From contig JBGSLH010000008.1 in assembly GCA_041740795.1 (NCBI GenBank), positions 15,860 through 79,859 of the forward strand: 64,000 nucleotides of DNA, given 5' to 3'. Each line of letters begins with the position of its first letter. Position 1 is the first letter of the stretch. This DNA comes from Minisyncoccia bacterium. Its GTDB lineage: Bacteria; Patescibacteriota; Minisyncoccia; Phycocordibacterales; JAACPR01. The translations under genes were made by a program, and so were the position numbers. The notes beneath the pieces are model-generated. The model was not told the origin of the DNA and searched no databases. It worked only from the letters and a program-made list of their open reading frames with translations. Below, in pieces: positions 17,484 to 37,225 of this stretch.

Positions 17484-17554
17484 TGCCCGATCGTCTAATG
17501 GTAGGACTGCGGTTTTTGGTACCGTCTATCGAGGTTCGAGTCCTTGTCGGGCAG
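17484..17554 (+). tRNA. tRNA-Gln (anticodon TTG)
   Basis: Acceptor TGCCCGA/TCGGGCA, anticodon stem GCGGT/ACCGT with loop TTTTGGT (UUG), T-arm CGAGG-TTCGAGT-CCTTG, discriminator G. Close resemblance to enterobacterial tRNA-Gln. Confidence 0.7.
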
Positions 17555-17674
17555 CTATTGACAGCTAGCTCAAATATGTTGTGTAATTAGAGCGCTCAAG
17601 TTGCGTTGATTTTCATTATGATTTTCTGCTTCTGTGGAGGAGTTGGACATTTAGTTTAAAGTGTTAAGATTTAA

Positions 17675-20450: not shown

Positions 20451-20493
20451 ACTGTAGATTGTGTTGTAGTATAAAACAACAAATAGTGTTAGG

Positions 20494-20709
20494 ATGAGTA
20501 TTATGAAAGAAGATACTAGAAAACTTGGTGATAATCTTAAAACAATTAGGATTAAAAAGAATATTACTCAAATTGAGATAGCTAAGAAATTAGGGAAAGA
20601 TCGTTCTTTTGTTAGTAATATCGAAAACGCAAAAACCAACCCAACTCTTTCAACTATTACTAATCTTGCTAAGGTTTTAGGTGTTTCAGCTAATGAATTA
20701 TTAAAATAA
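20494..20709 (+). CDS. XRE/Cro-type HTH regulator
   Basis: A 71-aa HTH_3 protein. Its stop is 1 nt before the start of the 1629-aa gene. Confidence 0.7.
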   Translation: MSIMKEDTRKLGDNLKTIRIKKNITQIEIAKKLGKDRSFVSNIENAKTNPTLSTITNLAKVLGVSANELLK

Positions 20710-20710
20710 T

Positions 20711-23700
20711 ATGCAAAAAGGAATAGACAATGGTATAAAACTATTTGAATATTTAGAAAAACTATCTCTGCTTAATACTAATATAAGAAGTAATGTAAAG
20801 AATTTATCTAAGGAAGAAGAAGAATTTAATTTAGAAGATAAAAACTTTTTGCCTATATTAGATAAAGTGTTTCTGAAAAATAGAGATTTAGAATTAGAAA
20901 AACCAGAAGATTTATTTTTATCAATTGAAAGATATAAAATTGAAAAACCTCCAAAATTGCCGAAAGAACTTGAAAAATGGATTGATTTTGAATCTATCAG
21001 TTTTATTAAACCAGAACCTAGAGAATTTTTGGTTTCGGTAGAGAAATTTAGTGATAATTCAGAAAGAGAAAATGCTTTTGAATCAATTGACTTAAATTCA
21101 AAAAAAGTCGATCCGATAATTAAAGATTGGGTTACAAAAACAGATAATGACACCTATGAAATGATCATAGAGAAGCCCAATAAAGCTTATTTTAAAGATT
21201 ATCCTGAATTACATAAATTATATAAAGATTGGATTGAATTAAAATGGGAGAAATGGAAAGAAAAAAATAATGAATATTTTATATCAAATCAAGCATATGA
21301 TAGATTTTATTCTCTTAGGTCTTTCTTAAAAACCGAATCAGATAGCTATGATCTTCTGTGGGCACATGATATTTTGACTTGGAAAAAAAACAGTAAAGAG
21401 GTTTATCATCCTACTATATTTACCCCTGTTGTTTTGGAGTTTGATCCTGATAGAAATATAATATCAATAAAAACAGAACAAAATTCAAAGACATTTTTTG
21501 ATGTTTCTTTTGTAAGAGAATCTATGGATGAAAATAGTACAAATCTAGCAGATATTGATTCTTTAGCTGAAAGAATCAATAAGAAAATTATTGAGGGAGA
21601 TTTTAATGTTTGGGATTATAAGATGATACATAAATACCTACAACAATTAGTTCATTATATATCCCCAGATGGTGAGTCTAGATATAAGGATAGAGGTTTA
21701 GATATACAGGTAACTGCACACCCGATTTCATTCAATAGTCATCATTTATTTTTACTGAAAAAAAGCGGAAAAAGTTGGGCAGATTATGCAAAAAAAATAC
21801 AAGAAGATATCGCTAAGAATAAAAAATTGACTCCCTTTTTAGAGGATCTAATTTTTGATGATGAGAAAAAAATAGACGAAACAGATAAAGAAGTCGAAAA
21901 AAACGATTCTGGTTCAGATGAAATAACAGATGGAGAACTTTATTTTCCTTTACCATATAATGATGAACAAAAAAGAATTGCAAATCAAATTGAATCAAAT
22001 TATGGTTCAGTTGTACAAGGTCCTCCTGGAACTGGAAAAACTCATACAATTGCAAACTTGATATCAAGATTTCTTGCATTAGGTAAAACTGTATTAGTTA
22101 CATCTCAAACAGGACAAGCTCTCTCTGTTTTGAAAAATAAGATCCCAAGTGAAATAAGAAGCATGGTTGTTTCTCAAGTCGAGTCTGATTCTAGAAATAA
22201 TGACTTGCAATCTTCTGTATCAGAAATAAATACAATGTTGTCAGACAATATTAGATTTACTGATGATAAAAGAGAAAAAGTAGAAAAAGATGTTCAGATC
22301 GTGAGAGAAAAAATTGCTCAAAAAAATAATGAATTTGAAAAAAAATCTTTATTAGATTCGAGAGAAGAAAAAACGATTGAATCTGAAAAGTTTTCTCCTA
22401 TTACTGCTGCAAAATATGTAACCTCATTTATTAATAATGATAAATTTAAAATCTTAGATGAAATAAATCACAATAGGGAATTACCAGTCTCTCAGTTACA
22501 GATTGATAATTACATATCAATATTAAGAAATTCAGATAATGAAATTTGGGATTTTGTAAAATTGGATACAATCCCTACGTTAGAACATCTTCCAAGAATT
22601 GAAACTTTAGAGAGGTTGTTTGAACTGAAGAATGATTTAGATAAGGCAGAAATTAAATTATTTAAAGAATATGTGCCAGATATAGAAGAATTAGAAAAAC
22701 TTAATGACGTTGAGCAGTATATAGAGGAATATAATTTAAATCTAGAAAAAAGTAAATCGTTTAAAGATTTTTTGAAAGAGACAGAGTTCTTTAAAAGAAA
22801 TGAAATTACAGAAGATGAAATTTTTGATAAAAAAAAAGAAGATATTATTTTTGAGATTCATGATTTATTAAAAAAAACAAAAGAGACATTGATGTCATTT
22901 GGCGAGGAATATGAAAAAGAGCTTTTTAATATTATAAAAAGTGATGGACAAAGAAGAAAATGGGAAACTGCCATATCTAAAATAAAAGAAATGCTTAGTA
23001 TGTACGAGGAATTTGATAGTCTTGTGTTAGGTAAAAAGATAGAGGTTTCTAAAGACTATAATGTTAATTTTGTTTTAACTTTAGATATTATTTCAAAACT
23101 ATCTGAACAAGCAGTAAATAATGGAGATAGAGTAAAAAAGGGCATAGGATTATTATTTGATCAGGGTGCAAGAAAAATTATTAAAAATATAAAGATTAAT
23201 AATAAAGAAATAAATACCTATGATGATATGCTGGTATTGAATGCATATTTTTCAAAAATTAAGATAGAAGACGATTTAAGAAATATTTGGGAACAGACTT
23301 TTCAGGTAATGGTTAACAAGAAGACTTTTTCTGATCCATTTAATGTTGTTGATTTTGAAAGTTCTCTGTCTTCTATTGATAGAATTGTTTCTTTTGAAAA
23401 TTTCAATTCCAAACTAAAAAAAGATTTAGAGAATCTCAGCTTATTCGAAGATATTAATATATCTAGCTTACATTTTGTAGAGGAAGCAATTAATATTTTT
23501 AGTAATTTTATATCAGTATTCAGAACTGAAGAATATAGTAATCTTATTGACAGTGTTGCTGAAGATTTAAAAAGAGACAATTCACATCAAAAAACACTGT
23601 TACTTTCAAAGCAAATAAAAGTAATGGATATTGAAAATATAAGGCCTTTAAAAGAGGAATTAAAGGATTTAAACAAGAGAAAAGAATTATCAGTAGAATA

Positions 23701-25600
23701 TTCAAAACTATATGAAGATGTGTTTTCTACTGAAATGAAAAAAATTAAATCTAATAAAAATAATCATAGAGATGTAATATTGTATATTCAAAATATTGAA
23801 GAGGGTAATGCTGAAGATATAAAAAAGTTCTATAAAACAATTCCAGATCTTATTGATAAGCAAAACAAATCTGTAGAAATAAAGTTGATAGAAGATTCTT
23901 TGAAAAATGATATCCCTAAAACCATAGATGAAATTAAAACTTCAATAAAAAAAGATATATTAATTAACTTTGATATAAAAGAAAGTTGGAAGTGTGGAAG
24001 ATTAATCAGTTGGCTTGATGAATTACATTCTGGAAACTCTGTTACTCAAATTAGTAAGGAATTATATATACTAAAAAATCAGGAGAGAGATTTAGTAAAA
24101 AAGTTAGTCGAAGTTTCCTCTTGGATACATCTTAAGAAAAGAGTTACTAAAAAACAGAAGGAGGCTTTGGCATCATTCGCGCTGAGTATGAAAAAATATG
24201 GTAAAGGTATGGGTAAATATGCTTCAAAACACCTTAAGGATGCTAAGGATGCTCTTGAAATAGGAAAAGACGCTGTCCCTGTTTGGATTATGCCAATTAA
24301 CACAATTCATCAGCTATTTCCGAATCCTGAATCTGGAATGTTTGATATTGTTATTTTTGATGAGGCTAGTCAGGTAGATACGAGAGGTTTAAATATCGCA
24401 TACATAGGTGAAAAACTTCTTGTAGTTGGAGATGATGAGCAGGTTAGTCCAACGTCTTTTACAACACAAAGTAAGGTTACAGATTTGATAACACGATACA
24501 TATCTGACGTACCAAATAGCCATCATTTCTCTAATACCTCTAGTCTTTTTGATATTTCTAAAATAAAAATGACTGACATTATAACTCTGACAGAGCACTT
24601 TAGATCTATAGAAGAAATAATTGGTTTTAGTAATGCATTATCCTATAACGGTAAATTGAAAGTCTTAAGAGATCAGCTTCCTGAATATAGATTAGACCCT
24701 GTCTTAGAGCCTATTTTTGTAGATAATGGCTTTGAAGAAACTAATGCTCAGGTCAATAAACCAGAAGCTGAAGCAATAGTAAGTAAATTAAAGGAAATGC
24801 TTCAGGATGAGAAATATAATGAAACAGATGAAGATGGTAAAACAAGACCAATGACTTTCGGTGTTATTTCTTTGCTTGGTAAAGAACAATCCAAACTTAT
24901 AATGAAATTAATTAGTGAGAATATCTCCTCTAAAGAAATTGAAAAGAGAGAAATTAATTGTGGAGACCCTTACGTATTTCAAGGGGATGAAAGAGATATT
25001 ATATTGATATCAATGGTTAAGGCGCCATCATTGAGTGATTCAAGTAAAAATATTTCTCCTTATACTGTATCTAAAAAAGAATATAAGCAAAGAGTTAACG
25101 TGGCCATGTCTAGAGCAAAAAATAAAATGGTTCTTTTTCACTCAATACCAAAAGATAAGTTATCTAACCCAGATGATTTAAGAAAGCAAATTTTAGATTG
25201 GTTTTATAATCATAAAACCGAAGAGAGAAAAGCAGGACTTCAAATGATTAGAGAAGAAGTTGAAAGGGGTAGGGCATCAGAATTTGAATACGATGTTGCA
25301 GAAATAATAATCAATAAAGGATATAAAGTAATCCCTCAGTATGAGGTTGCAGGATATAGAATAGATTTAGTTGTTCAAGGAGAAAAATCAAAACTTGCTG
25401 TAGAATGTGATGGAGATAAATATCATAATCAGTTTGATAAATGGCACGAGGATATGGAAAGGCAACAAATTTTAGAAAGATCGGGCTGGACATTTTGGAG
25501 ATTGTCTGGAAGTTCTTTCTATAAACATAAAGAGTTGGCTCTAGATAGTTTGTGGAAAAAGTTGGATGAAATGAACATTAATCCGTCGTTAGGTAATTAA
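20711..25600 (+). CDS. giant SF1 (Upf1/DNA2-like) helicase with C-terminal DUF559/Vsr-like endonuclease domain (Hhe-like architecture)
   Basis: Walker A VVQGPPGTGKTH. A long coiled-coil insertion. Helicase motifs IVIFDEASQV, LLVVGDDEQVSP and FQGDERDIILISMV. The C-terminus GYRIDLVV...LAVECDGDKYH is a DUF559 (restriction-endonuclease-like) signature. The ~400-aa N-terminal region is unassigned. Confidence 0.75.
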   Translation: MQKGIDNGIKLFEYLEKLSLLNTNIRSNVKNLSKEEEEFNLEDKNFLPILDKVFLKNRDLELEKPEDLFLSIERYKIEKPPKLPKELEKWIDFESISFIKPEPREFLVSVEKFSDNSERENAFESIDLNSKKVDPIIKDWVTKTDNDTYEMIIEKPNKAYFKDYPELHKLYKDWIELKWEKWKEKNNEYFISNQAYDRFYSLRSFLKTESDSYDLLWAHDILTWKKNSKEVYHPTIFTPVVLEFDPDRNIISIKTEQNSKTFFDVSFVRESMDENSTNLADIDSLAERINKKIIEGDFNVWDYKMIHKYLQQLVHYISPDGESRYKDRGLDIQVTAHPISFNSHHLFLLKKSGKSWADYAKKIQEDIAKNKKLTPFLEDLIFDDEKKIDETDKEVEKNDSGSDEITDGELYFPLPYNDEQKRIANQIESNYGSVVQGPPGTGKTHTIANLISRFLALGKTVLVTSQTGQALSVLKNKIPSEIRSMVVSQVESDSRNNDLQSSVSEINTMLSDNIRFTDDKREKVEKDVQIVREKIAQKNNEFEKKSLLDSREEKTIESEKFSPITAAKYVTSFINNDKFKILDEINHNRELPVSQLQIDNYISILRNSDNEIWDFVKLDTIPTLEHLPRIETLERLFELKNDLDKAEIKLFKEYVPDIEELEKLNDVEQYIEEYNLNLEKSKSFKDFLKETEFFKRNEITEDEIFDKKKEDIIFEIHDLLKKTKETLMSFGEEYEKELFNIIKSDGQRRKWETAISKIKEMLSMYEEFDSLVLGKKIEVSKDYNVNFVLTLDIISKLSEQAVNNGDRVKKGIGLLFDQGARKIIKNIKINNKEINTYDDMLVLNAYFSKIKIEDDLRNIWEQTFQVMVNKKTFSDPFNVVDFESSLSSIDRIVSFENFNSKLKKDLENLSLFEDINISSLHFVEEAINIFSNFISVFRTEEYSNLIDSVAEDLKRDNSHQKTLLLSKQIKVMDIENIRPLKEELKDLNKRKELSVEYSKLYEDVFSTEMKKIKSNKNNHRDVILYIQNIEEGNAEDIKKFYKTIPDLIDKQNKSVEIKLIEDSLKNDIPKTIDEIKTSIKKDILINFDIKESWKCGRLISWLDELHSGNSVTQISKELYILKNQERDLVKKLVEVSSWIHLKKRVTKKQKEALASFALSMKKYGKGMGKYASKHLKDAKDALEIGKDAVPVWIMPINTIHQLFPNPESGMFDIVIFDEASQVDTRGLNIAYIGEKLLVVGDDEQVSPTSFTTQSKVTDLITRYISDVPNSHHFSNTSSLFDISKIKMTDIITLTEHFRSIEEIIGFSNALSYNGKLKVLRDQLPEYRLDPVLEPIFVDNGFEETNAQVNKPEAEAIVSKLKEMLQDEKYNETDEDGKTRPMTFGVISLLGKEQSKLIMKLISENISSKEIEKREINCGDPYVFQGDERDIILISMVKAPSLSDSSKNISPYTVSKKEYKQRVNVAMSRAKNKMVLFHSIPKDKLSNPDDLRKQILDWFYNHKTEERKAGLQMIREEVERGRASEFEYDVAEIIINKGYKVIPQYEVAGYRIDLVVQGEKSKLAVECDGDKYHNQFDKWHEDMERQQILERSGWTFWRLSGSSFYKHKELALDSLWKKLDEMNINPSLGN

Positions 25601-25609
25601 TATTAAAAC

Positions 25610-26542
25610 ATGTCTTTTTTAAATAAATTAATAAAAATATTAGAACAAAATAATAAAAAAAGTGTTTTAAAAACGAAAACACCTGAAAACCATTCTGGCG
25701 ATATAGGGGTTTTCACTGCTGATAATGATAAAGATTTTAAATTACTACTATCTTTGTATAAGAAAAATAAAGAAGATGAAATTGATATAAAGTTTGTTGT
25801 TAAAACAGAAAGTCCACAAGCGACGGAACACATCTGTCCATATTGTAAGACCGTCCATGAATTTAAGGCTAGTCGAGCAAGAAAATGTCCAAACTGCTCT
25901 AATAAAATGGTTGTTAGACAAGGACTTTTTGTTACAGAAGATCAAGCTGAAAATATAGAAAAAAAGATTAGTGAATTTTATAATAAACAAGGGATTATTA
26001 GTCAGGTAGGATTTTCATTAGAATCCGCACAAGACCATAAGATTAATAAAGATAAGATTTATTACTACCGTTCCTTAGGTGAATCTTTTAGGTTTATGGC
26101 ACAGATAGAAAATAAAAAAGATGAAAAAGGATTTTCTTTTTGGGATAAAGCTTGGGGTTATTATAATAATGCAAGACTTCAAGAGATGAAAACACTAAGA
26201 AAAGACAGAATGGAATTCAGTTCCTTGCCTGATATTTTTTGGGATATGTCTAAAATGTTATTAGACCAAGGTAATCATGAAGATAGTGAAAAATATAAAA
26301 AACAAGCCCTCACACAAGCATGTATGACTATCGGTGAATCAATAAGATTAGGGGCTGAATTATATTTTATTACAGATATATATGAATTCTCAAAAAAAAT
26401 AATAAATGATTTATCTATTGATGAAGAAGAATTTTTGAATATAGCTGAAAAAGCTTCAGAGAGCATGAGATTAAGTGGTTCTGGTCTTTCAAAATATAAT
26501 AAAAAAATCAAAGAATTAAGCGAATATGAGGTTATTCAATAA
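25610..26542 (+). CDS. hypothetical protein with Cys4 zinc ribbon
   Basis: CPYCKT...CPNCSN. Starts 10 nt after the helicase gene. Its 3' end overlaps the recombinase gene on the opposite strand. Confidence 0.45.
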   Translation: MSFLNKLIKILEQNNKKSVLKTKTPENHSGDIGVFTADNDKDFKLLLSLYKKNKEDEIDIKFVVKTESPQATEHICPYCKTVHEFKASRARKCPNCSNKMVVRQGLFVTEDQAENIEKKISEFYNKQGIISQVGFSLESAQDHKINKDKIYYYRSLGESFRFMAQIENKKDEKGFSFWDKAWGYYNNARLQEMKTLRKDRMEFSSLPDIFWDMSKMLLDQGNHEDSEKYKKQALTQACMTIGESIRLGAELYFITDIYEFSKKIINDLSIDEEEFLNIAEKASESMRLSGSGLSKYNKKIKELSEYEVIQ

Positions 26543-27851
26543 TTATTTCTTTGTATTTTAAAATAATCCTGCCATTTAAATATTCAAGTAACTTTCTTTT
26601 TTCTTCTATTTCGCCCTCTTTCAAAATAAACTTAGCATAATCCCTAATATCAACATCTTGAACTTCAATTTCTTGAGTTAATCCCAATAGAGATTGATTA
26701 AATTTCTTTATTCTTTCAACTTCTGATTCTATCTTGCTTTTCATTCCAATTTCATCAATATTGATTTTATCTAAGAGCTTTTCAAATTGTTTGATTAATT
26801 CAACTTCATTGATGTATCCACATTTGCAATTTTTATCTCTTACTTTGGAACATCCGTAATAAATGTGTTTATTAACTGAACCATTTGCAAGTTTCTTAAA
26901 TTTTTCATCGGCAGATATTCCTGAGCCACACAACCCACATGTCATCATTTTGGTAAAGGCAAACTCTTTTGATTCTTGAGTTCGTATTGAGTGACTTTTT
27001 ATCTGTTCCTGAACTTGATTAAATAACTCTTGGGTGATTAAGGGTTCATGTTTTCCTTTGTAGAAGTTTCCACTTTTCTTGGGATATTCAAATACTCCAT
27101 AATAGAAAGGGTTTTGAAGTAGTAGATAGATATTCCCAAGGGCTAATCCTTTATTTCCTTTTGCTGTTTTAAAGTTGAGGTCAAATTTAAGCCAATGGTA
27201 TATTTTTCTTCCTGACCATTTTTCATATGCTACTTTTTCAAACATTTGTTTTACGATATGTGCTCGTTCAGGATCTAAAATAACTTCACACTTTCTATCC
27301 ATTCGTTTTTCATTTAAGTATCCAACTAGGGCAGGGCCAGGCCGTAATCCCATTTCACATCTTGTTCTTAATCCACGTTTTACATTGATACTTTTATTAT
27401 CGTTCTCAAGTTTTGCTTGAGAACAGAGAATCATTAAAAGGAACTTTTCGTTAGGGGAGTTTTGAAATGATTGTCCATATGTTTTTATTTGAATTAATTT
27501 TTTCTCGTCCATTAGGTCGACAACTGAACCAAGGTCACCAGCATTTCTCGATAATCTATCTGGTGCCCAAGTAAGTATCCCATTATATCTATCTCTCCGT
27601 ATGTCTTCTAAAAGTTCTCTAAATACTGGTCGTCCACCTGATTCCTTTGCTGAATGTGATTCTCTTCGAATATCTACAATTTCAAGACCGTCACGCTCTG
27701 CGATTGATAACATCTCCTTAACCTGTGATTCAATTGATAATGCTTGTTTTTCATCGGATTCGGTTGATTTTCTGGCGTAGAGGACATACCTAACCTTTAT
27801 CTGTGGTATCTCTGTCTTCACTCCTAAATTATTTGTATATTGTATTTCCAT
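26532..27851 (-). CDS. large serine recombinase, paralog of 19140..20450
   Basis: It shares long identical peptide blocks with the first recombinase (LTWAPDRLSRNAGDLG; KFLLMILCSQAKLENDNKSINVKRGLRT). Nucleotide identity in these blocks is only ~75 percent. Confidence 0.85.
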   Translation of the reverse strand: MEIQYTNNLGVKTEIPQIKVRYVLYARKSTESDEKQALSIESQVKEMLSIAERDGLEIVDIRRESHSAKESGGRPVFRELLEDIRRDRYNGILTWAPDRLSRNAGDLGSVVDLMDEKKLIQIKTYGQSFQNSPNEKFLLMILCSQAKLENDNKSINVKRGLRTRCEMGLRPGPALVGYLNEKRMDRKCEVILDPERAHIVKQMFEKVAYEKWSGRKIYHWLKFDLNFKTAKGNKGLALGNIYLLLQNPFYYGVFEYPKKSGNFYKGKHEPLITQELFNQVQEQIKSHSIRTQESKEFAFTKMMTCGLCGSGISADEKFKKLANGSVNKHIYYGCSKVRDKNCKCGYINEVELIKQFEKLLDKINIDEIGMKSKIESEVERIKKFNQSLLGLTQEIEVQDVDIRDYAKFILKEGEIEEKRKLLEYLNGRIILKYKEIIIE

Positions 27852-27965: not shown

Positions 27966-28838
27966 ATGAATAATCTAGTAAAAAGAGTTCAAGATACGTA
28001 TCTAAAATCTCCAATCTCTTTTCAAATTATTGGGATAACAACCTTATTTTTAGTCATCGTTTTTCCAATTTATGGGATCTATAATGAAATAAAACCAAGC
28101 GATACAGAATACTCAGAGGATAGGGGTTCAGATCACGAAGACTGTAATGTTCAAGGGATTGAACTTAGAGGTGAATTATTTACATATGTTCCAAGAGACG
28201 ATGAGGGTGTCAAAGAATATGGACTTGAAGATTCGTCTGAGAGTGAAGATGTTATGTATTATCTCAAAAATGCAGAGAATGAAGATGACATCAAAGGTGT
28301 ACTCATCGAAGTTGATTCATATGGAGGATCACCAGCTGCTGCAGAAGAAATTTCAAACACAATAAAATCAATGAACAAGCCTGTAGTAGTATTTATTCGA
28401 GAAGCAGGGCTATCTGCATCATACTATGCAATTTCTCCAGCTGATTATATTTTTGCCCTCAAAAACTCTAGTATTGGAAGTATTGGTGTAACTCAATCGT
28501 ATTTAGATAATATTTCAAAGAATCAAAAAGAAGGAAATTCCTTTGTTCAATTAAGTGTGGGTAAATTTAAGGATTCAGGAAATCCAGATAAGTCACTTAA
28601 CCAAGAGGAGCGAGCTTTATTTATGAGAGATCTTAATATTATTCATGAAAACTTTATACAGGCTATTTCTGAAAATAGGAATATTCAAATTGATAAGATA
28701 AGAGATATAGCTGACGGATCTTCAGTACTAGGAGAGAAAGCAAAAGAACTCGGACTTATTGATGATATTGGGGGTTATGTTGAATCTCAGAAATACATTG
28801 AGAATTTAATAGATGAAGAAGTGTCTGTTTGCTGGTAG
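27966..28838 (+). CDS. signal peptide peptidase SppA (S49), membrane anchored
   Basis: N-terminal TM. VDSYGGSPAAAEEI and GLSASYYAISPAD match the S49 catalytic regions. Confidence 0.7.
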   Translation: MNNLVKRVQDTYLKSPISFQIIGITTLFLVIVFPIYGIYNEIKPSDTEYSEDRGSDHEDCNVQGIELRGELFTYVPRDDEGVKEYGLEDSSESEDVMYYLKNAENEDDIKGVLIEVDSYGGSPAAAEEISNTIKSMNKPVVVFIREAGLSASYYAISPADYIFALKNSSIGSIGVTQSYLDNISKNQKEGNSFVQLSVGKFKDSGNPDKSLNQEERALFMRDLNIIHENFIQAISENRNIQIDKIRDIADGSSVLGEKAKELGLIDDIGGYVESQKYIENLIDEEVSVCW

Positions 28839-29320: not shown

Positions 29321-29575
29321 TCTAAATTTAAATTTGAATAAACTTACAAATAAAAAAGTTAAATTAACATATCTATGTAAAAAGTCTTCAGAAGAAAGTA
29401 CTTTGAGATTAGATAAAGCATTTGATATCTTATTTGAGTATGTTTTCGAGAAGATTGATGATTCAAAAAATACTAAATCACGGTAAACTGATTGCTTAGC
29501 AAATCCCTGATTTGCGATATAATGCAATGAGATAGTATATCTTTCGATATATTATAGAAGAATACAATTCAAAAA

Positions 29576-29676
29576 GGCCTATCAAGCATAAAGAACCCGT
29601 CATGGGGTTTTGCTTGATAGGCCGCATCAGGAAACTGGTGTGAAGGATTTCGATCCTTACCCGTGGCGGGCTTTTT
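29576..29676 (+). other. structured intergenic element (13-bp perfect stem enclosing an inner hairpin, a tRNA T-arm-like hairpin, terminator-like stem + T-run)
   Basis: ggcctatcaagca...tgcttgataggcc (13/13). aaggatttcgatcctt palindrome. cccgtggcggg followed by cttttt. Confidence 0.35.
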
Positions 29677-30171: not shown

Positions 30172-30633
30172 TCACTTCTTCTTAGTGTAAAAAGGTTTCC
30201 ATCTATCAAGCATTGCGCGAGCTTTTTGTTTGATTCTCTCTCTATCTTCTTTTGACTGTCCAAATTTGATTTGATTTAAATCGTTCATCATCCTGTAGTG
30301 CTCCTTAATCAATTCTCGTTCAAATACATTCACGCCTGCACCTCGATGCATAAAAGGTTTCCTGTATGCATGATGCCTATTGGATAACCAAAATTTACTC
30401 GTTCCAATGTCTCCTTTTTTAATCCCATTTAGAATATTACTTTCTGCCACGTCACTGACCAAACTACTTCCAATTTCTATTGCATCTGTTGCTTGTGTCT
30501 TAAACTTAGAATCTTCTTTCATCCAGCGATAAAAAGTTTGTCTTGATATTCCAACTTTCGTACACGCAATTTGTACAATCGGAGTTGACTCTAGTTCTCT
30601 AAGAATTTTCTTTTGTAAATTATCTTTTTTCAC
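30172..30633 (-). CDS. HTH protein resembling phage terminase small subunit
   Basis: N-terminal HTH (VGISRQTFYRWMKED) and a basic C-terminal region. Its 5' end overlaps the upstream methyltransferase gene. Confidence 0.4.
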   Translation of the reverse strand: MKKDNLQKKILRELESTPIVQIACTKVGISRQTFYRWMKEDSKFKTQATDAIEIGSSLVSDVAESNILNGIKKGDIGTSKFWLSNRHHAYRKPFMHRGAGVNVFERELIKEHYRMMNDLNQIKFGQSKEDRERIKQKARAMLDRWKPFYTKKK

Positions 30634-31909
30634 AACGATTAATCTTAGCTTTTTGACCAGTCATCTTTTCATATCTTTTAATAATGAGGTCACAGAAAAT
30701 AGGTTCAAGTTCACATCCGTATACTCGTCTTTGGAGTAATTCACCTGCAATTAATGTACTTCCTGATCCCAGAAAACTATCAAGGATTATGTCATTTGGC
30801 TTGGTGCATCTTTTCATTGCTTTTTCATGCAGTTGAGGTGGTTTTGAAGTTGCATGCTGATAGTCTTGTGCAGATAATCTTTTAGCAGTCCAAACATCTA
30901 TAAAGTCATCTACTTCATCAAGTAGATTATTACCAGTAGTCAGTTCTTTATTCATAACCTCGTTTAGATTATTGATTGTATGTGCAAGATATGGTTTTCC
31001 ACGAACACCATACGTCACAGGTTCATATACCTTGTTGAAGGCAACGGAAGGAACTGGGTTCTGATTATTCTTGAGCCACAAACATACGCGCTTGTTTGAT
31101 ATCCCAAGTAGGCGATAGAGTTCTTGCACAATTCCGATATAAATTTGATCAGACCAGTAGAACACATGAATATCTTTCTTACATACTTTTAAAGCACATT
31201 CTATACTGTCTTTAAGAAATTTATAATATTGATCAAATGTTCTCTTATCTTTCACGTCTCCACCATATGATTGTTTTCCTCCAATGCCTCCGTTGTAATC
31301 AACTTCAATATTGTAGACAGGGTCTGAATAAATCATCGATGCTTTTTCATTGCCAAATAGTTTTTTTAGAATTTCTGGGTCAGTTGAATCTCCACAGATA
31401 ATCCTGTGCTTTCCAAGAGTAATAATGTCACCCAATCGAATTTTAGGCTTTTTAATTTTTTGTAACTCTTTTTCAACATCAAAGTTATCATCGGTAACCT
31501 CTTTGTCTTGGTCCCAAAAATCTGCAATTTCAATCTCATCAAAACCAGCAAATTCTAAAGTTTTGATATCAAATGATTTGAGTAAATCAAAATCCCAATC
31601 ACCACCAAGTTTGTTGGATGCAATGAGATATTGCTCTGACTCTTTTTTAGTTAGTTTTCGATTTGGAATTCGAACATCAATTATTTCATCACCTCGACCA
31701 AGTAGGTGAAGGGCTTGTAATCTTTGGTGACCGGCCAGAATTACGCCATTAATATCAATGGCAGGTATTTCCACTAGATTGAATTTAGTGAGACTCTTTT
31801 TAATGTCAGACATTTGCTTATCTGTAATCTGTCTTGGATTTATTTTTTGAGGTGTTAAATCAGACACTTTTCTTTGAACTGTAGTCCATGTTAGTTTTTG
31901 TATATTCAT
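30620..31909 (-). CDS. ParB-like nuclease domain fused to N6-adenine/N4-cytosine DNA methyltransferase (phage/plasmid type, no cognate REase seen)
   Basis: ParBc motif ILAGHQRLQA. MTase motif IV-like SDPVY and motif I ILDSFLGSGST. Confidence 0.8.
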   Translation of the reverse strand: MNIQKLTWTTVQRKVSDLTPQKINPRQITDKQMSDIKKSLTKFNLVEIPAIDINGVILAGHQRLQALHLLGRGDEIIDVRIPNRKLTKKESEQYLIASNKLGGDWDFDLLKSFDIKTLEFAGFDEIEIADFWDQDKEVTDDNFDVEKELQKIKKPKIRLGDIITLGKHRIICGDSTDPEILKKLFGNEKASMIYSDPVYNIEVDYNGGIGGKQSYGGDVKDKRTFDQYYKFLKDSIECALKVCKKDIHVFYWSDQIYIGIVQELYRLLGISNKRVCLWLKNNQNPVPSVAFNKVYEPVTYGVRGKPYLAHTINNLNEVMNKELTTGNNLLDEVDDFIDVWTAKRLSAQDYQHATSKPPQLHEKAMKRCTKPNDIILDSFLGSGSTLIAGELLQRRVYGCELEPIFCDLIIKRYEKMTGQKAKINRCEKR

Positions 31910-32442: not shown

Positions 32443-32583
32443 TTAACTTTTAGAACCTCGTTTATGTTTTTGAGATAGGGCACTTCCTGCTAACCTTTTT
32501 GTGGTTTTAGAAGTGCTTTTACTCCTCAGTGCTTTACTTGCAGTTCTTGCAACTTTGGCACTCGTTGTTTTTCTGTGACCCAT
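32443..32583 (-). CDS. small basic Ser/Thr/Lys-rich protein (46 aa), not in ORF track
   Basis: MGHRKTTSAKVARTASKALRSKSTSKTTKRLAGSALSQKHKRGSKS. It lies 6 nt upstream of 32062..32436 on the same strand. Confidence 0.25.
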   Translation of the reverse strand: MGHRKTTSAKVARTASKALRSKSTSKTTKRLAGSALSQKHKRGSKS

Positions 32584-32612
32584 ATTGTTCTTGGGTTAAC
32601 TAATAATGATGA

Positions 32613-32625
32613 TTGAAATATTCAA
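32613..32625. promoter_or_regulatory. palindromic candidate operator TTGAAATATTCAA in a divergent promoter region
   Basis: A perfect 13-bp palindrome between the minus-strand small gene and the LexA-like gene. Confidence 0.3.
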
Positions 32626-32713
32626 TCTATTCTTATTTTACCAAGGTTGTTTGTCAAAAGTCAAGACAATATATTTCTGAGCATTGCAAAAGTAAAGTGT
32701 AAGTGATATTATT

Positions 32714-33367
32714 ATGTATATGGAAGCAAAAAATCTGCATATAAAACAACAACTAATACTTTCAATGCTTGAATCTGGAAAAGATTTAGGAGCGATGACT
32801 CTTCGTGGTATTGCTGAAGATATTGGAGCTCCTGGGAAACCTCAAATTGCCAAACATCACTTAGATCAACTCGAAAAAAGGGGATTGATACAGATGAACC
32901 TAAAAGAGAATTTTATTAAACTTGTAAAAAAGGGATATAACAAACCTGTTGTGAGTCCTCTGTACTCTCTGCCAGTTATGGGATCTGCCAATTGCGGTTC
33001 TCCTACAATTTTTGCTGAACAGAACATTGAAAAATATTTGAAAGTTTCTTCTAGTAGATTACCAAGAAACAAAAAAAGTCTCTATGTATTAATTGCTAGT
33101 GGATCGAGTATGAACGATGTTTCTATTGATGGTAAAAATATTGAGAACGGTGATTTTGTGTTAGTAGACAGTAATTATAAAGACTACAAAGATGGAGATG
33201 TTGTTGTTGCTGTTGTGGATGGATTAGCAACAATTAAAATATATTTCAAAAGAGGTGATGAAATAATTTTAAAACCAAAATCAACAGAAGATCATCTCCC
33301 TGTTTATCTCCATGAGGATGATGAGTTTGCGTTTAATGGAAAGGTTGTAGGAGTTATTAAAAATTGA
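32714..33367 (+). CDS. LexA-like repressor (LexA-type winged HTH + S24 peptidase)
   Basis: LexA N-terminal domain pattern (LTLRGIAEDIG...HHLDQLEKRGLI). S24 Ser/Lys dyad context (IASGSSMNDVSI...ATIKIY). The stop is 1 nt before the next gene. Confidence 0.75.
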   Translation: MYMEAKNLHIKQQLILSMLESGKDLGAMTLRGIAEDIGAPGKPQIAKHHLDQLEKRGLIQMNLKENFIKLVKKGYNKPVVSPLYSLPVMGSANCGSPTIFAEQNIEKYLKVSSSRLPRNKKSLYVLIASGSSMNDVSIDGKNIENGDFVLVDSNYKDYKDGDVVVAVVDGLATIKIYFKRGDEIILKPKSTEDHLPVYLHEDDEFAFNGKVVGVIKN

Positions 33368-33368
33368 T

Positions 33369-34514
33369 ATGCCGATTACTAATGTAAAAGAAATTAAGGA
33401 TGCTCGAGGTATTGATCCAAATACAAAAGCCTTGTTATTTGCAAAAACTGCAGGTAGGTGTGAGTTGTGTAATAAATTGACCATTAAAGATGTAACAACT
33501 GGAGTGAATTTAATTTGGGGAGAAATGGCCCACATATATGCGTTTAGTGAGGGTGGTCCTCGAGCACAGGTAGATAAACTTAGGAAAAATGATATTGAGA
33601 ATTTACTTCTGGCTTGTCCTAATTGTCATGAAAAAATTGATAAAGGAGTTCAGGAAAAATATTATACAGTTAAATATCTACAAGAATCTAAAAAGAATCA
33701 TGAAGATAGAATAAAATTAGCAACAAGTTTTTCGTCAGAACAAAAAACTAAAGTATTGAAAACGGTTGCAAATATTAATAATGAAATAGTAAAACTTTCT
33801 AACTTCGATATGTTCCAGGCCTTAATGGTAGAAAAATTACTCACTTCTGAAGAAAATTGCGAAGAAATTAATTTTACACAAAATTCAGGTCTTAATAATC
33901 AGACATATTGGAAATCAAAAAAACAAGATATTGATGAAATTATAAAAAATTTTATTTCTGATTTGAAAAGAGAGAAGTTTGAACATATTTCAATTTTCGG
34001 GATTGGACCAATTCCACTTCTGATGTATTTAGGTTCAAAATTAGACAATAAGATTAATACAAAAGTATTTCAAAGACACCGTGATGGTGAGAGTTGGAGC
34101 TGGAAGAAGGGAATACCAAAAGCTGAATATAATTTTAGTGTAAAGAAAAAGGGCTCTGACAAAAATAAAGTTTCACTTCTACTGTCTCTTTCTGGAACTA
34201 TAAATCGTAACCTACTCCCAACTAATGTCAAAGAAAATTATATGTACGAATTGTCTCTTAAGGGTAGTCCTAATTATAATTTTTTGCAAACAGAAAAAGA
34301 CCTATTTCATTTTGAAAAAGATTTCACTACGGCTATAAGTAAAATAAAAAATAATCACCCTAATTTAAAAAGCATCGATGTTTTCCCGGCTGTCCCAGCA
34401 CCTGTTGCAATTATATGTGGTAGGTCCTTAAATAAAAACTCTGACCCCAAATTAAGGATTTTTAATACATCCAACAAGAAGAAGTTCGTTTATTCATTAA
34501 CAATTAATAATTAA
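33369..34514 (+). CDS. HNH endonuclease with ~270-aa C-terminal domain (Cap5-like HNH-SAVED effector architecture)
   Basis: HNH motif CELCNK...AHIYAFSEGG...NLLLACPNCHEKID within the N-terminal 95 aa. The C-terminal domain is unassigned by eye; its size and position fit SAVED. Confidence 0.55.
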   Translation: MPITNVKEIKDARGIDPNTKALLFAKTAGRCELCNKLTIKDVTTGVNLIWGEMAHIYAFSEGGPRAQVDKLRKNDIENLLLACPNCHEKIDKGVQEKYYTVKYLQESKKNHEDRIKLATSFSSEQKTKVLKTVANINNEIVKLSNFDMFQALMVEKLLTSEENCEEINFTQNSGLNNQTYWKSKKQDIDEIIKNFISDLKREKFEHISIFGIGPIPLLMYLGSKLDNKINTKVFQRHRDGESWSWKKGIPKAEYNFSVKKKGSDKNKVSLLLSLSGTINRNLLPTNVKENYMYELSLKGSPNYNFLQTEKDLFHFEKDFTTAISKIKNNHPNLKSIDVFPAVPAPVAIICGRSLNKNSDPKLRIFNTSNKKKFVYSLTINN

Positions 34515-34517
34515 AAT

Positions 34518-35408
34518 ATGGAAACTAATAAATATTTAAAAGAAGTACTAAAACAGGAAGCATTAGAAGACGACGGTCCTGAGCTAAAAGAATTACGTTC
34601 TGAGCGAGAAAAAATAGAGAAAATAATCTTAGAAAAGTTTTCTGAGTCTAGCCCATCTATTCGTTATGGTGGCTCAAAAGCAAAAGGTACAATGATAAAA
34701 AGTAGTTTTGATTTAGATATCACTGTGTACTTTGATCATAATGACACTAAGTGTGGAAGTAGTTTGAAAGAGATCTTTGATAATGTTACAGAGGCATTTT
34801 CCGAGACTTATTTACCTGTACCCAAAAACGCATCGATACGATTAGAGTCAAAGGGGGATAATAATATGTATACACATATAGATATTGTTCCTGGACGTTT
34901 TATTTCAGATAATAAGGAAAATGAAGATGTCTTTATTCATCAAAATACAGGAGAAAAAGGTTTTTTAAAGACAAATCTTAATAAGCACAAGGAATTCATT
35001 AGTAAAAGTGGTTTGCGAGAAGAGATAAAACTTGCAAAGATTTGGAAGATTAAAAACAATCTCGAAGTTAAAACTTTTGTTTTAGAGTTGTTACTAATCA
35101 AAATTCTAAAAGAATATGTTGGGAAACCTTTGGAGGATAACATGATTTTGTTCTGGGAAACCTTAAGGGACAAGATTAATAATATTACTATCATTGATCC
35201 TGCTAATTCTAGTAATGATTTAACTGATATTTTAAATAAAAGTAAATATACACTATGTAGTAGTGCTTCAACAGCATTGTATTATGTAAACTCAGATTCT
35301 TGGAAAAGTATTTTTGGAGAAGTTAATAATTTGGAAAAAGTAAATATTGAGGATAGTACACCAATGGCCATCACTAGTACTCCGAAACCATGGTCTTCGA
35401 TTTCATGA
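34518..35408 (+). CDS. minimal Pol-beta-type nucleotidyltransferase (CD-NTase/SMODS-like)
   Basis: GS...DLD (RYGGSKAKGTMIKSSFDLDITV) and a third acidic motif HIDIV. 3-nt gap from the upstream gene. Confidence 0.55.
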   Translation: METNKYLKEVLKQEALEDDGPELKELRSEREKIEKIILEKFSESSPSIRYGGSKAKGTMIKSSFDLDITVYFDHNDTKCGSSLKEIFDNVTEAFSETYLPVPKNASIRLESKGDNNMYTHIDIVPGRFISDNKENEDVFIHQNTGEKGFLKTNLNKHKEFISKSGLREEIKLAKIWKIKNNLEVKTFVLELLLIKILKEYVGKPLEDNMILFWETLRDKINNITIIDPANSSNDLTDILNKSKYTLCSSASTALYYVNSDSWKSIFGEVNNLEKVNIEDSTPMAITSTPKPWSSIS

Positions 35409-36124
35409 GTATGGCGCTATATAAATTTAGTGAGGAGGAGGTAGAATCTGTTTTTAAGAAATATAAAAAACTAAAATTGAACAAAAACGGTTTTATTGAA
35501 GGTGAAATATTGTTAAATCACACTTATGATGACATTCATATAAAAGATAAATTTCAGATAGTTATAGGTGCTGATGAAGAGTATCCTAAAACCACACCTC
35601 GATTAATGGAAGTCGGAAAGAGAACAGAGAAAATTGCTCAGAAATATAATATAAAAGATTTTAGGGATTTACATAATAATTCAAAAGATGGTGGAACTGT
35701 ATGTTTGGGGAGTCCTCGTGAAATTAGAAATAAATTTCCAGTTGGTTCAGATCTAGTGGTCTTTGTCGATGATTTGGTAATACCTTATCTATTTGGATTT
35801 AGTTTTTATGAAAAACATAAAAAATGGCCTTGGGGAGAATTAAGTCATGGTATTCTGGGAATTTTGGAAGACTATCTGGATATCAAAGATGTATCTAGAA
35901 CTGATATAGATAATGTATTATTGTTGATTAAGAGGAGTCCAGATTGGATTGATTACAATAAACAAATAAAAAAACTCAGTCCACAAAAACATTGTATCTG
36001 TGGCTCGTGCAGACCCTTTTGTAAATGTCATTCTGATGCATGGAAAGGTTTAGAAAAACTTGTTTGTGATATGAAAAAATTTAATCTAAATGTAAAATCT
36101 GCACTAAGTCAGATTAAGATTTAA
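35390..36124 (+). CDS. E2/UBC-like protein with C-terminal Cys-rich zinc ribbon (CBASS type II-short Cap2-like)
   Basis: HNN...GGTVCLGSP resembles the E2 HPN...G.ICL active-site region. C-terminal HCICGSCRPFCKCH. Overlaps the NTase gene end. Confidence 0.45.
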   Translation: MVFDFMSMALYKFSEEEVESVFKKYKKLKLNKNGFIEGEILLNHTYDDIHIKDKFQIVIGADEEYPKTTPRLMEVGKRTEKIAQKYNIKDFRDLHNNSKDGGTVCLGSPREIRNKFPVGSDLVVFVDDLVIPYLFGFSFYEKHKKWPWGELSHGILGILEDYLDIKDVSRTDIDNVLLLIKRSPDWIDYNKQIKKLSPQKHCICGSCRPFCKCHSDAWKGLEKLVCDMKKFNLNVKSALSQIKI

Positions 36125-36728
36125 TTTTCTTATTTAATTTCATATTTTTCATCTCTTCTCTAACCCATTTTCTGTGTTTTTTATCTCTATGTCTATCATA
36201 AGATTTTCTTATTGGATTAAACTTGATTATTAGATTAGGGTTTTCTTTTTTAAGGAAAATATACTCGTGAACTTTACCATCTTCATTTAATATCTCTCTT
36301 GCAACTAGTTTGCCTTCTCGAACATATTTTTTAACCGTTTGTATATGAAGACCTAAATCACTTTTTAATTGCCAAGTTTTTATATAACTATCACTGTTGT
36401 GACAAATAAAACTAGGTACAACACCTGTGTCTAGTGCTTTCTGACAAAGTGAACATTTATTGCCATTCCAATCATACCAACCGTTGACCTCGTCGATACC
36501 ACATCCACATATGATACAACTATATTGGCCATCAACTGGAAATCCTTTAGGCTCTGTCTTCAGACGTTTTTTCTTTCTTTGGTCTCTAATTGCGATATCA
36601 AAAAGGAGATCTGCTAAACCTATTAAATTATTGGTGGCTTCTTGTGCTTCAGAATCACTCATTTCTTTACCTTCCTTTTTCTTATATAACTTTTTTATTT
36701 CTTCTGTTAATTTCTCAGATGATTTCAT
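36114..36728 (-). CDS. hypothetical Cys-rich (zinc-binding) protein
   Basis: CIICGCG...C.LC plus a basic C-terminus. No family recognised. Confidence 0.35.
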   Translation of the reverse strand: MKSSEKLTEEIKKLYKKKEGKEMSDSEAQEATNNLIGLADLLFDIAIRDQRKKKRLKTEPKGFPVDGQYSCIICGCGIDEVNGWYDWNGNKCSLCQKALDTGVVPSFICHNSDSYIKTWQLKSDLGLHIQTVKKYVREGKLVAREILNEDGKVHEYIFLKKENPNLIIKFNPIRKSYDRHRDKKHRKWVREEMKNMKLNKKIKS

Positions 36729-36811
36729 AAAGTATTAAAGGTTACTTTGTAATGAGGTACTACTTTATATTTTATAATGGACTCGATATTTTAATCCAGA
36801 CATGCTAGTGT

Positions 36812-37018
36812 TTGGGGCATATGAGGGAAACAAACACATTATCTATAATTCTAAACATAATACTGATACCTATTGTGATAATTAGTAAGGTTATTGCTTT
36901 GATATATAAGGGTATAAAGAGGGTAGTATTTGATATGCTTAAACATGTATATGGCAAAATAATTGCTCTCCTTGTGGCCTTTGTAGTGATTTGGATAGTT
37001 ACATATCTCTTTCGCTAG
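36812..37018 (+). CDS. small membrane protein
   Basis: Two hydrophobic helices. Confidence 0.3.
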   Translation: MGHMRETNTLSIILNIILIPIVIISKVIALIYKGIKRVVFDMLKHVYGKIIALLVAFVVIWIVTYLFR

Positions 37019-37114
37019 GCAGTGTCACTTTTGTCACTTTTTATAGGTGCTCAAGTCGCGTCATTTCAAAATTTAAAGATTGTACCAACCATCAAGCAGG
37101 GCTTGGTGGTGGTT

Positions 37115-37137
37115 GGTTCGAGCTCTTGTCGGCCAGC
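37115..37137 (+). repeat. degenerate direct copy of the tRNA-Gln 3' end (candidate attR)
   Basis: ggttcgagctcttgtcggccagc vs tRNA 17533-17555 ggttcgagtccttgtcgggcagc: 20/23 identical, same orientation. Confidence 0.4.
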
Positions 37138-37225
37138 AGCACATTTTCTTCTTGTTTTTCAACCTATTTTTATTGAGGTGTCTTGGACGCTAGAACTTTT
37201 TACATAAAGTGCTATTATTTAATCA

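Follow-up and report, generated by a model that had tools for sequence, protein, structure and literature searches.

The 64,000-nt stretch analysed here (hereafter the window), from a Minisyncoccia bacterium of the phylum Patescibacteriota (assembly GCA_041740795.1, contig JBGSLH010000008.1, positions 15,860 to 79,859 of the forward strand), carries on its plus strand a four-gene operon headed by a LexA/CI-type repressor and continuing with the three components of a cyclic-oligonucleotide-based anti-phage signalling system (CBASS). The four open reading frames (ORFs) encode proteins of 217, 381, 296 and 244 aa, with intergenic gaps of +1, +3 and -19 nt. All four genes are present where an earlier reading of the sequence (the original prediction) placed them, and the domain make-up attributed to them there was confirmed with hidden Markov models (HMMs); the gaps reach +3 nt as predicted, and the overlap, put at 18 nt, measures 19 nt. 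The same prediction placed the CBASS under SOS-type control, a claim that is here downgraded and replaced by a different one: the repressor heads a bounded slot for immune cargo on an element specific to the phylum.

The first gene after the repressor (33369-34514, +) encodes the effector Cap5, in which an HNH nuclease is joined to a SAVED sensor domain (Pfam SAVED, 2.5e-36 over residues 193-379, plus HNH); matches to the PADLOC endonuclease effector (4.5e-145), to NCBIfam and to the solved Cap5 structure 7rwm (6.9e-45) bear out the predicted HNH-SAVED architecture. The second (34518-35408, +) encodes a CD-NTase with a disordered C-terminal tail ending PKPW, recognised by the PADLOC cyclase model (3.9e-69) and retaining the GS/DxD/D motifs, of which the catalytic residues G52-S53, D65, D67 and D122 are invariant among 52 homologues; against Pfam SMODS it scores 21.7 bits, which, like its scores for the NCBIfam cyclase models, is below the curated cut-off. 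A fold search of the PDB with its AlphaFold2 model (pLDDT 89.7) placed bacterial CD-NTases in each of the first 13 positions (TM 0.63-0.70), and the alternative that it might be an antibiotic-type nucleotidyltransferase was not borne out. Assignment to a clade was attempted and none stands out: CdnC, CdnB, CdnD, the CdnG-E2 complex and CdnE fall within a narrow score band, the first three slightly above CdnG, and the sole PDB sequence match is CdnC (4e-6). The third gene (35390-36124, +) encodes an E2-only Cap2 homologue with a C-terminal SEC-C-like zinc motif, identified through the PADLOC E2 model (8.9e-41) and an H95..C105 motif kept throughout its protein cluster, C17. PADLOC alone recognises it as an E2, no match having been returned by the Pfam, NCBIfam or PDB sequence searches, and HMM scans of the neighbouring genes gave no match to ThiF or JAB.

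A SAVED fold is thus present in the effector, the nucleotidyltransferase groups with CD-NTases and, as set out below, the regulator is not a housekeeping LexA; the operon therefore encodes a genuine type II-short CBASS, for which second-messenger synthesis upon infection and protection against phages would be expected. Its three-part architecture is that of the described CdnG-E2-Cap5 systems (PDB 8hsb for Serratia CdnG-E2, 7rwm for Cap5; PMC8568899), and the CdnG-E2 complex is among the top fold matches of its CD-NTase. The window system differs in placing the effector gene first and in having a CD-NTase at most 20% identical to any solved clade representative, and is an ordinary, if divergent, member of this kind.

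A disordered C-terminal tail ending P-[KRS]-[PQ]-W-[SAG] is common to proteins encoded directly upstream of the E2-like gene. It is borne by the CD-NTases of the window (35330-35408, residues 273-296) and of the related loci L008, L016, L019 and L084, and also by a ThsB-type TIR protein (L029, 11315-11890) that is paired with the same E2 family; the shared tail suggests that the TIR system of L029 may be under E2 control through it.

The repressor itself (32714-33367, +) combines a putative winged helix-turn-helix (HTH) domain with an S24 autopeptidase domain (Peptidase_S24, 5.9e-20; PHROG transcriptional repressor, 5.7e-18), as the original prediction had it. It aligns with Escherichia coli LexA (PDB 7b5g, E = 2e-12) from residue 29 onwards, C94-G95 corresponding to the A84-G85 cleavage bond and S132 and K175 to the catalytic S119 and K156. 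G95, S132 and K175 are found in all 84 of 84 homologues and C94 in 81, a Cys-Gly cleavage site being that of UmuD. With cleavage site and Ser/Lys dyad intact, the protein looks competent for self-cleavage. Its N-terminal domain also gave weak matches to the CasR/Csa3 HTH in PADLOC. No WYL match was obtained among the four operon proteins or their neighbours and no Peptidase_M78 in the window region around the operon, in line with the expectation that the regulator would be neither of the CapW nor of the CapH/CapP type.

Homologues of the repressor numbered 338, mostly 55-65% identical to it, and 84 non-redundant loci were assembled from contig look-ups and a scan of one genome per species, almost all of them in metagenome-assembled genomes (MAGs) of Patescibacteria. 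Across these loci, numbered with the prefix L, the repressor is the first gene of a rightward operon, and what follows it differs from locus to locus, with at least ten other system types besides the CBASS of the window. The CBASS cargos (types I, II and III) combine a CD-NTase with Cap5 and E2, with Cap15, with S_4TM, with SLATT, or with HORMA and TRIP13; the TIR-based ones pair ThsB-TIR, in a Thoeris-like manner, with ThsA-Macro, 8xMP or membrane proteins, or TIR with a caspase; further cargos consist of a Pycsar cyclase with PycTM, Shedu, E2-E1-JAB, a KAP NTPase or restriction-modification genes. Among the 69 loci with enough downstream sequence, 18 carry CBASS, 19 TIR-based systems, and 14 unrecognised genes or none identifiable; the cargo went unrecognised in 4 of 37 loci with the element backbone described below. 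A coupling specific to CBASS, as originally proposed, is contradicted by these loci, since identical or related repressors head Thoeris-like, TIR-caspase, Pycsar, Shedu and E1-E2-JAB cargo. The repressor is neither CBASS-specific nor a housekeeping LexA.

The exchange of cargo takes place at a fixed junction. In 60 of 75 loci, the following gene begins no more than 20 nt beyond the repressor stop (a single nucleotide beyond it in the window). The relative nearest to the window is L002, which has a 77% identical repressor and a cargo of SMODS plus S_4TM; DNA homology between the two extends from the end of the methyltransferase gene and breaks off 23 nt after the repressor stop. Loci L004 and L007, which encode an identical repressor, are 98% identical through the repressor and a small DUF2188 gene, beyond which they diverge, one carrying CD-NTase and Cap15 and the other ThsB-TIR. 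Such a small gene, absent from the window, lies on the conserved side of the junction in about 30 loci, encoding either DUF2188 (L004 8653-8880, L011, L014, L021 and others) or a protein of about 70 aa (cluster C9) with the motif KxWTxEEvKQLkqLA (L019, L022, L037, L050 and others).

On its other side, the slot is closed by an invariant 16-mer, GTGTCACTTTTGTCAC, which lies downstream of the repressor in 51 loci, always on the plus strand and at a distance of 1.3-10 kb from the start of the repressor gene. A locus normally has a single copy, and three have two. The 16-mer closes the slot in 29 of 32 backbone loci and is followed by about 100 nt of conserved sequence. In the window, where it is unique (37022-37037), it opens a right terminal region (37022-37138, +), defined by alignment, whose end resembles the 3' end of a tRNA-Gln and for which no credible Rfam family match was obtained. 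Because the 16-mer begins at 37022, the slot of the window spans 33368-37021 and holds, besides the CBASS, a 204-aa gene without assigned function (36114-36728, -) that converges on the E2 gene with an 11-nt overlap; its product has a CxxC..CxxC motif, no Pfam match, and no homologue among the collected loci. A hairpin, AAAGTTACA..TGTAACTTT, usually precedes the 16-mer, and a GCGCACGAGAnGCGTCG box, a TGATATAAT-like box and the tRNA-3'-end-like terminus come after it; in both the window (17590-17612) and L016, a degenerate copy of the GCGC..GCGTC box likewise follows the intact tRNA-Gln. The 16-mer may act as a pac site, an att arm, an origin or a promoter. The 16-mer was considered as a further operator copy, for which its repeat spacing of 9 nt, as against 7-8 nt, gives no support.

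The linkage of repressor and immune genes recurs far beyond chance, and it is kept by distant homologues without the backbone, which precede Cap5, CD-NTase and E2 (L079, a Bacteroidetes MAG), CD-NTase and E2 (L084), CBASS III (L083) or DUF1883-TIR (L065, Acidobacteria). The closest relatives of the window CD-NTase (52-63% identity) all carry an S24 gene upstream. In the Acidobacteriota sequence CP065000.1, a 46%-identical Cap5-CD-NTase-E2 operon is preceded by a divergent cluster that ends in an IrrE/ImmA-type M78 peptidase of the CapP type, which fits a LexA-like protein filling a regulator's place in the window; the 143-aa and 202-aa proteins encoded upstream of this operon gave no HTH match, so that of a CapH-CapP pair the CapP-like member alone is verified. 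The place upstream of the CBASS operon would therewith be a position where DNA-damage-responsive regulators occur. Tight coupling, backbone-less pairs and the S24 genes upstream of the nearest CD-NTase relatives argue for a link between repressor and immunity that would be functional and not merely positional. Loci with unrecognised cargo include L015 (a 658-aa protein), L024, L034 (an MBL-like protein of 285 aa), L044 and L078, and the genes in their slots are candidates for undescribed defence systems. A protein of about 218 aa (cluster C18), which gave no Pfam or PHROG match, is the last gene of otherwise unrelated cargos, namely S_4TM CBASS, TIR-caspase and TIR-E2 (L002 10394-11053, L014 12271-12924, L023, L029, L041).

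In most loci, the repressor is moreover a backbone gene of a phage-derived integrative element, which speaks against a single-purpose CBASS regulator. A gene for a ParB-like domain fused to an N6/N4 DNA methyltransferase (cluster C1) is divergent from the repressor in 42 of the 65 loci with at least 2.5 kb of upstream sequence; among the 32 backbone loci with at least 8 kb upstream, 31 encode a small (TerS) and/or large (TerL) terminase subunit and 24 a serine integrase (cluster C2). In the window, the methyltransferase gene lies at 30620-31909 (-; N6_N4_Mtase 3.9e-26, PHROG DNA methyltransferase 1.4e-83, ParB-like 2.6e-22), next to a gene for a small-terminase-like HTH protein at 30172-30633 (-; cluster C4; PHROG terminase small subunit 2e-7 to 2e-4, Pfam Sf6_terminase 1e-4, under cut-off), and the left end is formed by the gene for a large serine integrase at 26532-27851 (-), with Resolvase, Recombinase and Zn_ribbon_recom domains and a PHROG integrase match of 1.7e-62. 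TerL, which matches PHROG 38 at 6.6e-79 in the relatives, is missing from the window copy, where its place is taken by a window-specific S49/prohead-protease-like gene (27966-28838, +; Peptidase_S49 2.9e-30, PHROG head maturation protease 2.6e-38). The repressor, the integrase and both terminase subunits match PHROG families and no capsid or tail module accompanies them, as in satellites or cryptic elements; mobility or packaging would be expected. Two small genes open the leftward arm, the first encoding a 46-aa basic protein common to L002 (32443-32583, -; cluster C114) and the next a 124-aa protein kept in L002, L009, L012 and L019 (32062-32436, -; cluster C19), for which no Pfam or PHROG match was found.

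An orphan RNA of the LOOT family (Rfam RF03000) lies at 29534-29658 (+) in the window, with 55.5 bits against a gathering score of 46.4; of eight related loci, six have it at the corresponding place, scoring 70-88 bits (L002 3264-3386, L004 3054-3182, L008 4039-4159, L013 4552-4678, L014 5106-5223, L019 6666-6784). Positioned between the integrase and terminase genes, 55-70 nt upstream of a variable ORF, it is a conserved non-coding component of the element family; a search for functional literature on this RNA found none.

The extent of the element was derived from L004, L005 and L006, which hold the same element (96-99.5% identity) between different flanks and define an 8.95-kb unit from the 3' end of the integrase gene, where the homology of L004 begins, to the 3' edge of the right terminal region. 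By analogy with these ends, the window copy spans about 26.5-37.1 kb and, in the explanation that we favour with a little more than even confidence, is one copy of a compact (about 9-11 kb) family of phage-derived integrative elements of Patescibacteria. It sits in a low-GC island (0.26-0.33 across about 18-42 kb, against about 0.44 in the flanks), the drop from 0.44 to about 0.30 beginning just past a tRNA-Gln (17484-17555, +; ARAGORN and Rfam) that marks the left edge and is a candidate integration target. Housekeeping genes make up the flanks; the SerRS encoded there shares 85% identity with a protein of Candidatus Parcubacteria and about 70% with Paceibacterota proteins, which places the host in Patescibacteria. 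The last 23 nt of the right terminal region match the 3' end of this tRNA-Gln at 20 of 23 positions; such likeness is confined to the window and L016, and suggests tRNA-Gln-directed integration and a composite island. Many other copies (L004 1232-1507, L005, L006, L008, L009, L017, L020) adjoin, at the integrase end, a csoR-type metal repressor gene and genes for a copper ATPase or oxidase, a neighbourhood that suggests a preferred insertion site other than tRNA-Gln. The region 19140-26542, between the tRNA-Gln and the element integrase, encodes another large serine recombinase (19140-20450, +), followed by an SF1 helicase of 1629 aa that has an MTES_1575/DUF559 nuclease domain at its C terminus and by a protein of 310 aa. 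The region may represent a further defence module or a tandem element; L003 likewise has a giant helicase of this sort directly next to the integrase.

The region between repressor and leftward arm holds back-to-back promoters, recognisable in 26 aligned intergenic regions. The rightward one, the predicted repressor-CBASS promoter (32684-32712, +; promoter scan and alignment), reads TTGCAA (32684-32689), a 17-nt spacer and TATTAT (32707-32712) with an upstream TG, and its TTGCA-like -35 box and extended -10 box (TGcTATAAT) are kept across the 26 loci. With 5-8 nt between the end of this promoter and the repressor ATG, a leaderless mRNA is probable. In the window, the distance from the end of the -10 box is 1 nt to ATG 32714 and 7 nt to ATG 32720, and the latter is therefore the likelier start. 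An invariant 15-mer, GTGTAAAATGTCAAA, holds the -35 hexamer of the leftward promoter; in 30 loci it precedes the repressor ATG by 32 to 70 nt, in most of them by 56 to 70, and it is essentially absent elsewhere in the 20-kb loci. The window and L002 carry an aligning variant, TTGTCAAAAGTCAAGACAA (32651-32669 in the window), which overlaps the leftward -35 hexamers, has a core unique within the 64 kb, and is the candidate operator; a second, incomplete copy, CAAAAGTAAAG, is located at 32687-32697, within the rightward promoter. Counted together with its complement, the hexamer TGT(C/A)AA has a density of 1.8 per 100 nt in the regions upstream of the repressor, 18-fold the background of 0.10, and palindromic pairs of this half-site are present in 27 of 82 such regions (33%) against 0.44% of background windows. 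The right palindrome arm doubles as the -35 box of the promoter from which the repressor is itself transcribed in L082, which has the backbone, and in L083 and L084, which lack it; in L004, each of the two divergent promoters has one of the arms as its -35 box. This arrangement predicts repression, including autoregulation.

The palindrome originally singled out as the operator of the repressor-CBASS operon is a different one. An inverted repeat is indeed present at 32611-32627 (GATTGAA-ATA-TTCAATC, unique in the window), but it is not the perfect 13-mer described, since its centre is A-T-A between 7-nt arms. It lies just downstream of the leftward -10 box and 57 nt ahead of the rightward -35 box; family-wide half-sites are absent from it, and it is confined to the window and to L002, which has GGTTGA-ATTA-TCAACC at the same position. 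By itself it is not significant, because a match with at most two mismatches is expected about once per 64 kb. Its position and its poor conservation led to its rejection as the operator of the CBASS operon; a role in the leftward operon, as a site peculiar to the subfamily or as a leader hairpin, is more likely.

Taken together, these observations are explained, with a probability that we put slightly above one half, by a RecA-cleavable repressor of the element that would also autoregulate the operon bearing the immune cargo. The left arm would be transcribed from a near-consensus leftward promoter into the small proteins, the ParB-methyltransferase, TerS (and TerL in most relatives) and the terminal serine integrase, and the right arm as a probably leaderless operon, with the HTH-S24 repressor first and the exchangeable cargo slot after it. 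A repressor dimer would bind TGT(C/A)AA-type half-sites overlapping the back-to-back promoters, silencing the phage-like arm and, by autoregulation, keeping expression of its own operon low, and with it that of the toxic immune cargo. Upon DNA damage or phage replication, RecA-ssDNA filaments would form and stimulate self-cleavage at Cys94-Gly95 by Ser132/Lys175; both arms would then be derepressed and expression of the immune cargo would rise as the element activates. SOS induction of the window CBASS would be one instance of this behaviour.

Several findings weigh against this explanation. The N-terminal domain of the repressor falls under the cut-off of Pfam LexA_DNA_bind (E = 0.075), and the operator is a candidate designated from its conservation. 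The half-site TTGACA is also the sigma-70 -35 consensus, and because it is so generic, promoters, and not an operator, account for part of the half-site enrichment. The conserved box of most backbone loci takes the form of a direct repeat instead of a palindrome, which is unusual for a LexA-type dimer, and the main box of the window sits upstream of the rightward -35 box, a geometry that fits activation as in lambda PRM as well as repression. As regards the element, neither inverted or direct repeats nor a pair of att sites rose above noise at the ends of L004; ARAGORN detected no tRNA adjoining most elements, the left end of L004 included; and a scan of IMG/VR yielded a single relative, on a 4-kb contig, and no full phage bearing the module, so that a phage-satellite lifestyle gains no further support from it. 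Eighteen loci lack the backbone, and the repressor-cargo pair is therefore able to exist apart from the element.

The main rival takes up the geometry of the box. In phage lambda, the HTH-S24 repressor CI is cleaved via RecA, and the abortive-infection genes rexA and rexB are co-transcribed downstream of it on a leaderless mRNA. By the same logic, the intact repressor would activate or accompany its own operon, as in cI-rexA-rexB transcribed from PRM, and SOS cleavage would lower cargo expression instead of raising it. In the window and in the loci whose box lies about 67-70 nt upstream, the box abuts the rightward -35 and covers the leftward -35, as OR2 does at PRM; the two classes of box spacing are about 11 nt apart, one helical turn; the mRNA appears leaderless, as that of cI from PRM; and a transcriptome survey reports defence expression to be negatively correlated with recA. 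The rightward promoter, however, has a good -35 and an extended -10 box and should need no activator, the palindrome arm coincides with the -35 box of the repressor promoter in L004, L082, L083 and L084, and the second, partial box of the window lies inside the rightward promoter spacer. On this evidence we consider the lambda-like arrangement unlikely.

Less probable still is adjacency without regulation, in which the slot after the repressor gene would be a permissive insertion hotspot, the cargo would be expressed constitutively or from signals of its own, and the repressor would control the phage-like arm only. Such hotspots are known, P2 prophages and P4-like satellites carrying many alternative defence systems at one fixed position (bioRxiv 10.1101/2021.01.21.427644), and the sharp junctions, together with some loci in which 100-300 nt or small additional genes separate the cargo from the repressor, would suit one here. 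Against it stand the spacing of at most 20 nt in 60 of 75 loci, which leaves no room for a separate cargo promoter, and the retention of the repressor-cargo pair in backbone-less loci.

That the repressor evolved as a dedicated single-protein SOS regulator of the window CBASS, acting through the palindrome at 32611-32627, would accord with the tight gene spacing, with the S24 genes upstream of the nearest CD-NTase relatives and with the M78 peptidase cluster in the same place of the homologous Acidobacteriota operon; it is nevertheless very improbable and already contradicted by the same repressor family, even the identical protein, preceding at least ten other system types, and by a palindrome that is absent beyond the closest relative, downstream of the leftward -10 box and devoid of family half-sites. 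A housekeeping LexA that CBASS merely adjoins is scarcely credible, although JGI annotations name the homologues LexA and the best PDB and NCBIfam matches are LexA, because the protein scores 94.1 bits against the cut-off of 110.95 for the lexA equivalog TIGR00498 (alignment over residues 7-217), its gene lies inside a low-GC island beside integrase and terminase genes, four MAGs hold two copies, a family-specific pattern search recovered only 88 relatives among 185,579 species representatives, and the candidate operator is unique within 64 kb; the original prediction had likewise set the regulator apart from the housekeeping gene.

The favoured explanation, an element repressor that also governs immune cargo, has partial precedents. 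Besides lambda CI, SetR of the SXT/R391 integrative and conjugative elements is an HTH-S24 repressor cleaved via RecA, and in each case the repressor gene is divergent from the lytic or transfer genes of its element, as it is here. The window repressor differs from CI in its putative LexA-like winged HTH in place of the CI-type HTH, and its family differs from both in the Cys-Gly site, the hypervariable slot bounded by a 16-mer, and the Patescibacteria host; compared with lambda, the element is only about 9-11 kb and without capsid or tail genes. Phage-inducible chromosomal islands are small phage-related elements with defence hotspots. With these, and with P2 and P4, the family shares small size, integration, phage relatedness, a conserved backbone and a fixed cargo position; it is set apart by its large serine integrase, ParB-methyltransferase, TerS plus TerL and LOOT RNA, by belonging to another phylum, and by a hotspot located within the repressor's operon. 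Among regulators of immunity, CapW/BrxR, CapH-CapP and CapK-CapS head diverse immune operons, including CBASS, and are thought to be coupled to DNA damage (PMC9122588; bioRxiv 10.1101/2022.04.27.489752; PMC13373217). The window repressor is, by contrast, a single protein with its own S24 domain and no WYL domain, M78 peptidase or kinase; its gene is the co-directional first gene of the operon rather than a divergent one, and it usually belongs to a mobile-element backbone. A literature search of incomplete coverage retrieved no description of a LexA/S24 protein tied to CBASS, Thoeris or defence islands, nor of this element in Patescibacteria.

It is conceivable, with a chance we put somewhat short of even, that this HTH-S24 protein represents a fourth, single-protein class of DNA-damage-responsive regulators of immune operons, carried on undescribed elements of about 9-11 kb that act as the main abortive-infection vehicle of Patescibacteria. 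If so, a self-cleaving LexA/CI-type protein at the head of the operon would be the most direct link so far between RecA sensing and abortive infection, because neither a partner protease nor a kinase would be needed. The occurrence of the same CBASS type under an M78-type module in Acidobacteria and an S24 protein in Patescibacteria amounts to a natural swap experiment, and the orphan LOOT RNA gains a defined genetic context. The slot between the repressor stop and the 16-mer would also be a ready-made trap for new Patescibacteria defence systems and provide a simple discovery rule, given that 14 of 69 loci hold unrecognised or unidentifiable cargo. The genomes of Patescibacteria are tiny and, by an earlier description, contain little classical defence (PMC12455944); a single element family that brings CBASS I, II and III, Thoeris-like, TIR-caspase, Pycsar, Shedu and other systems into one slot alters that picture.

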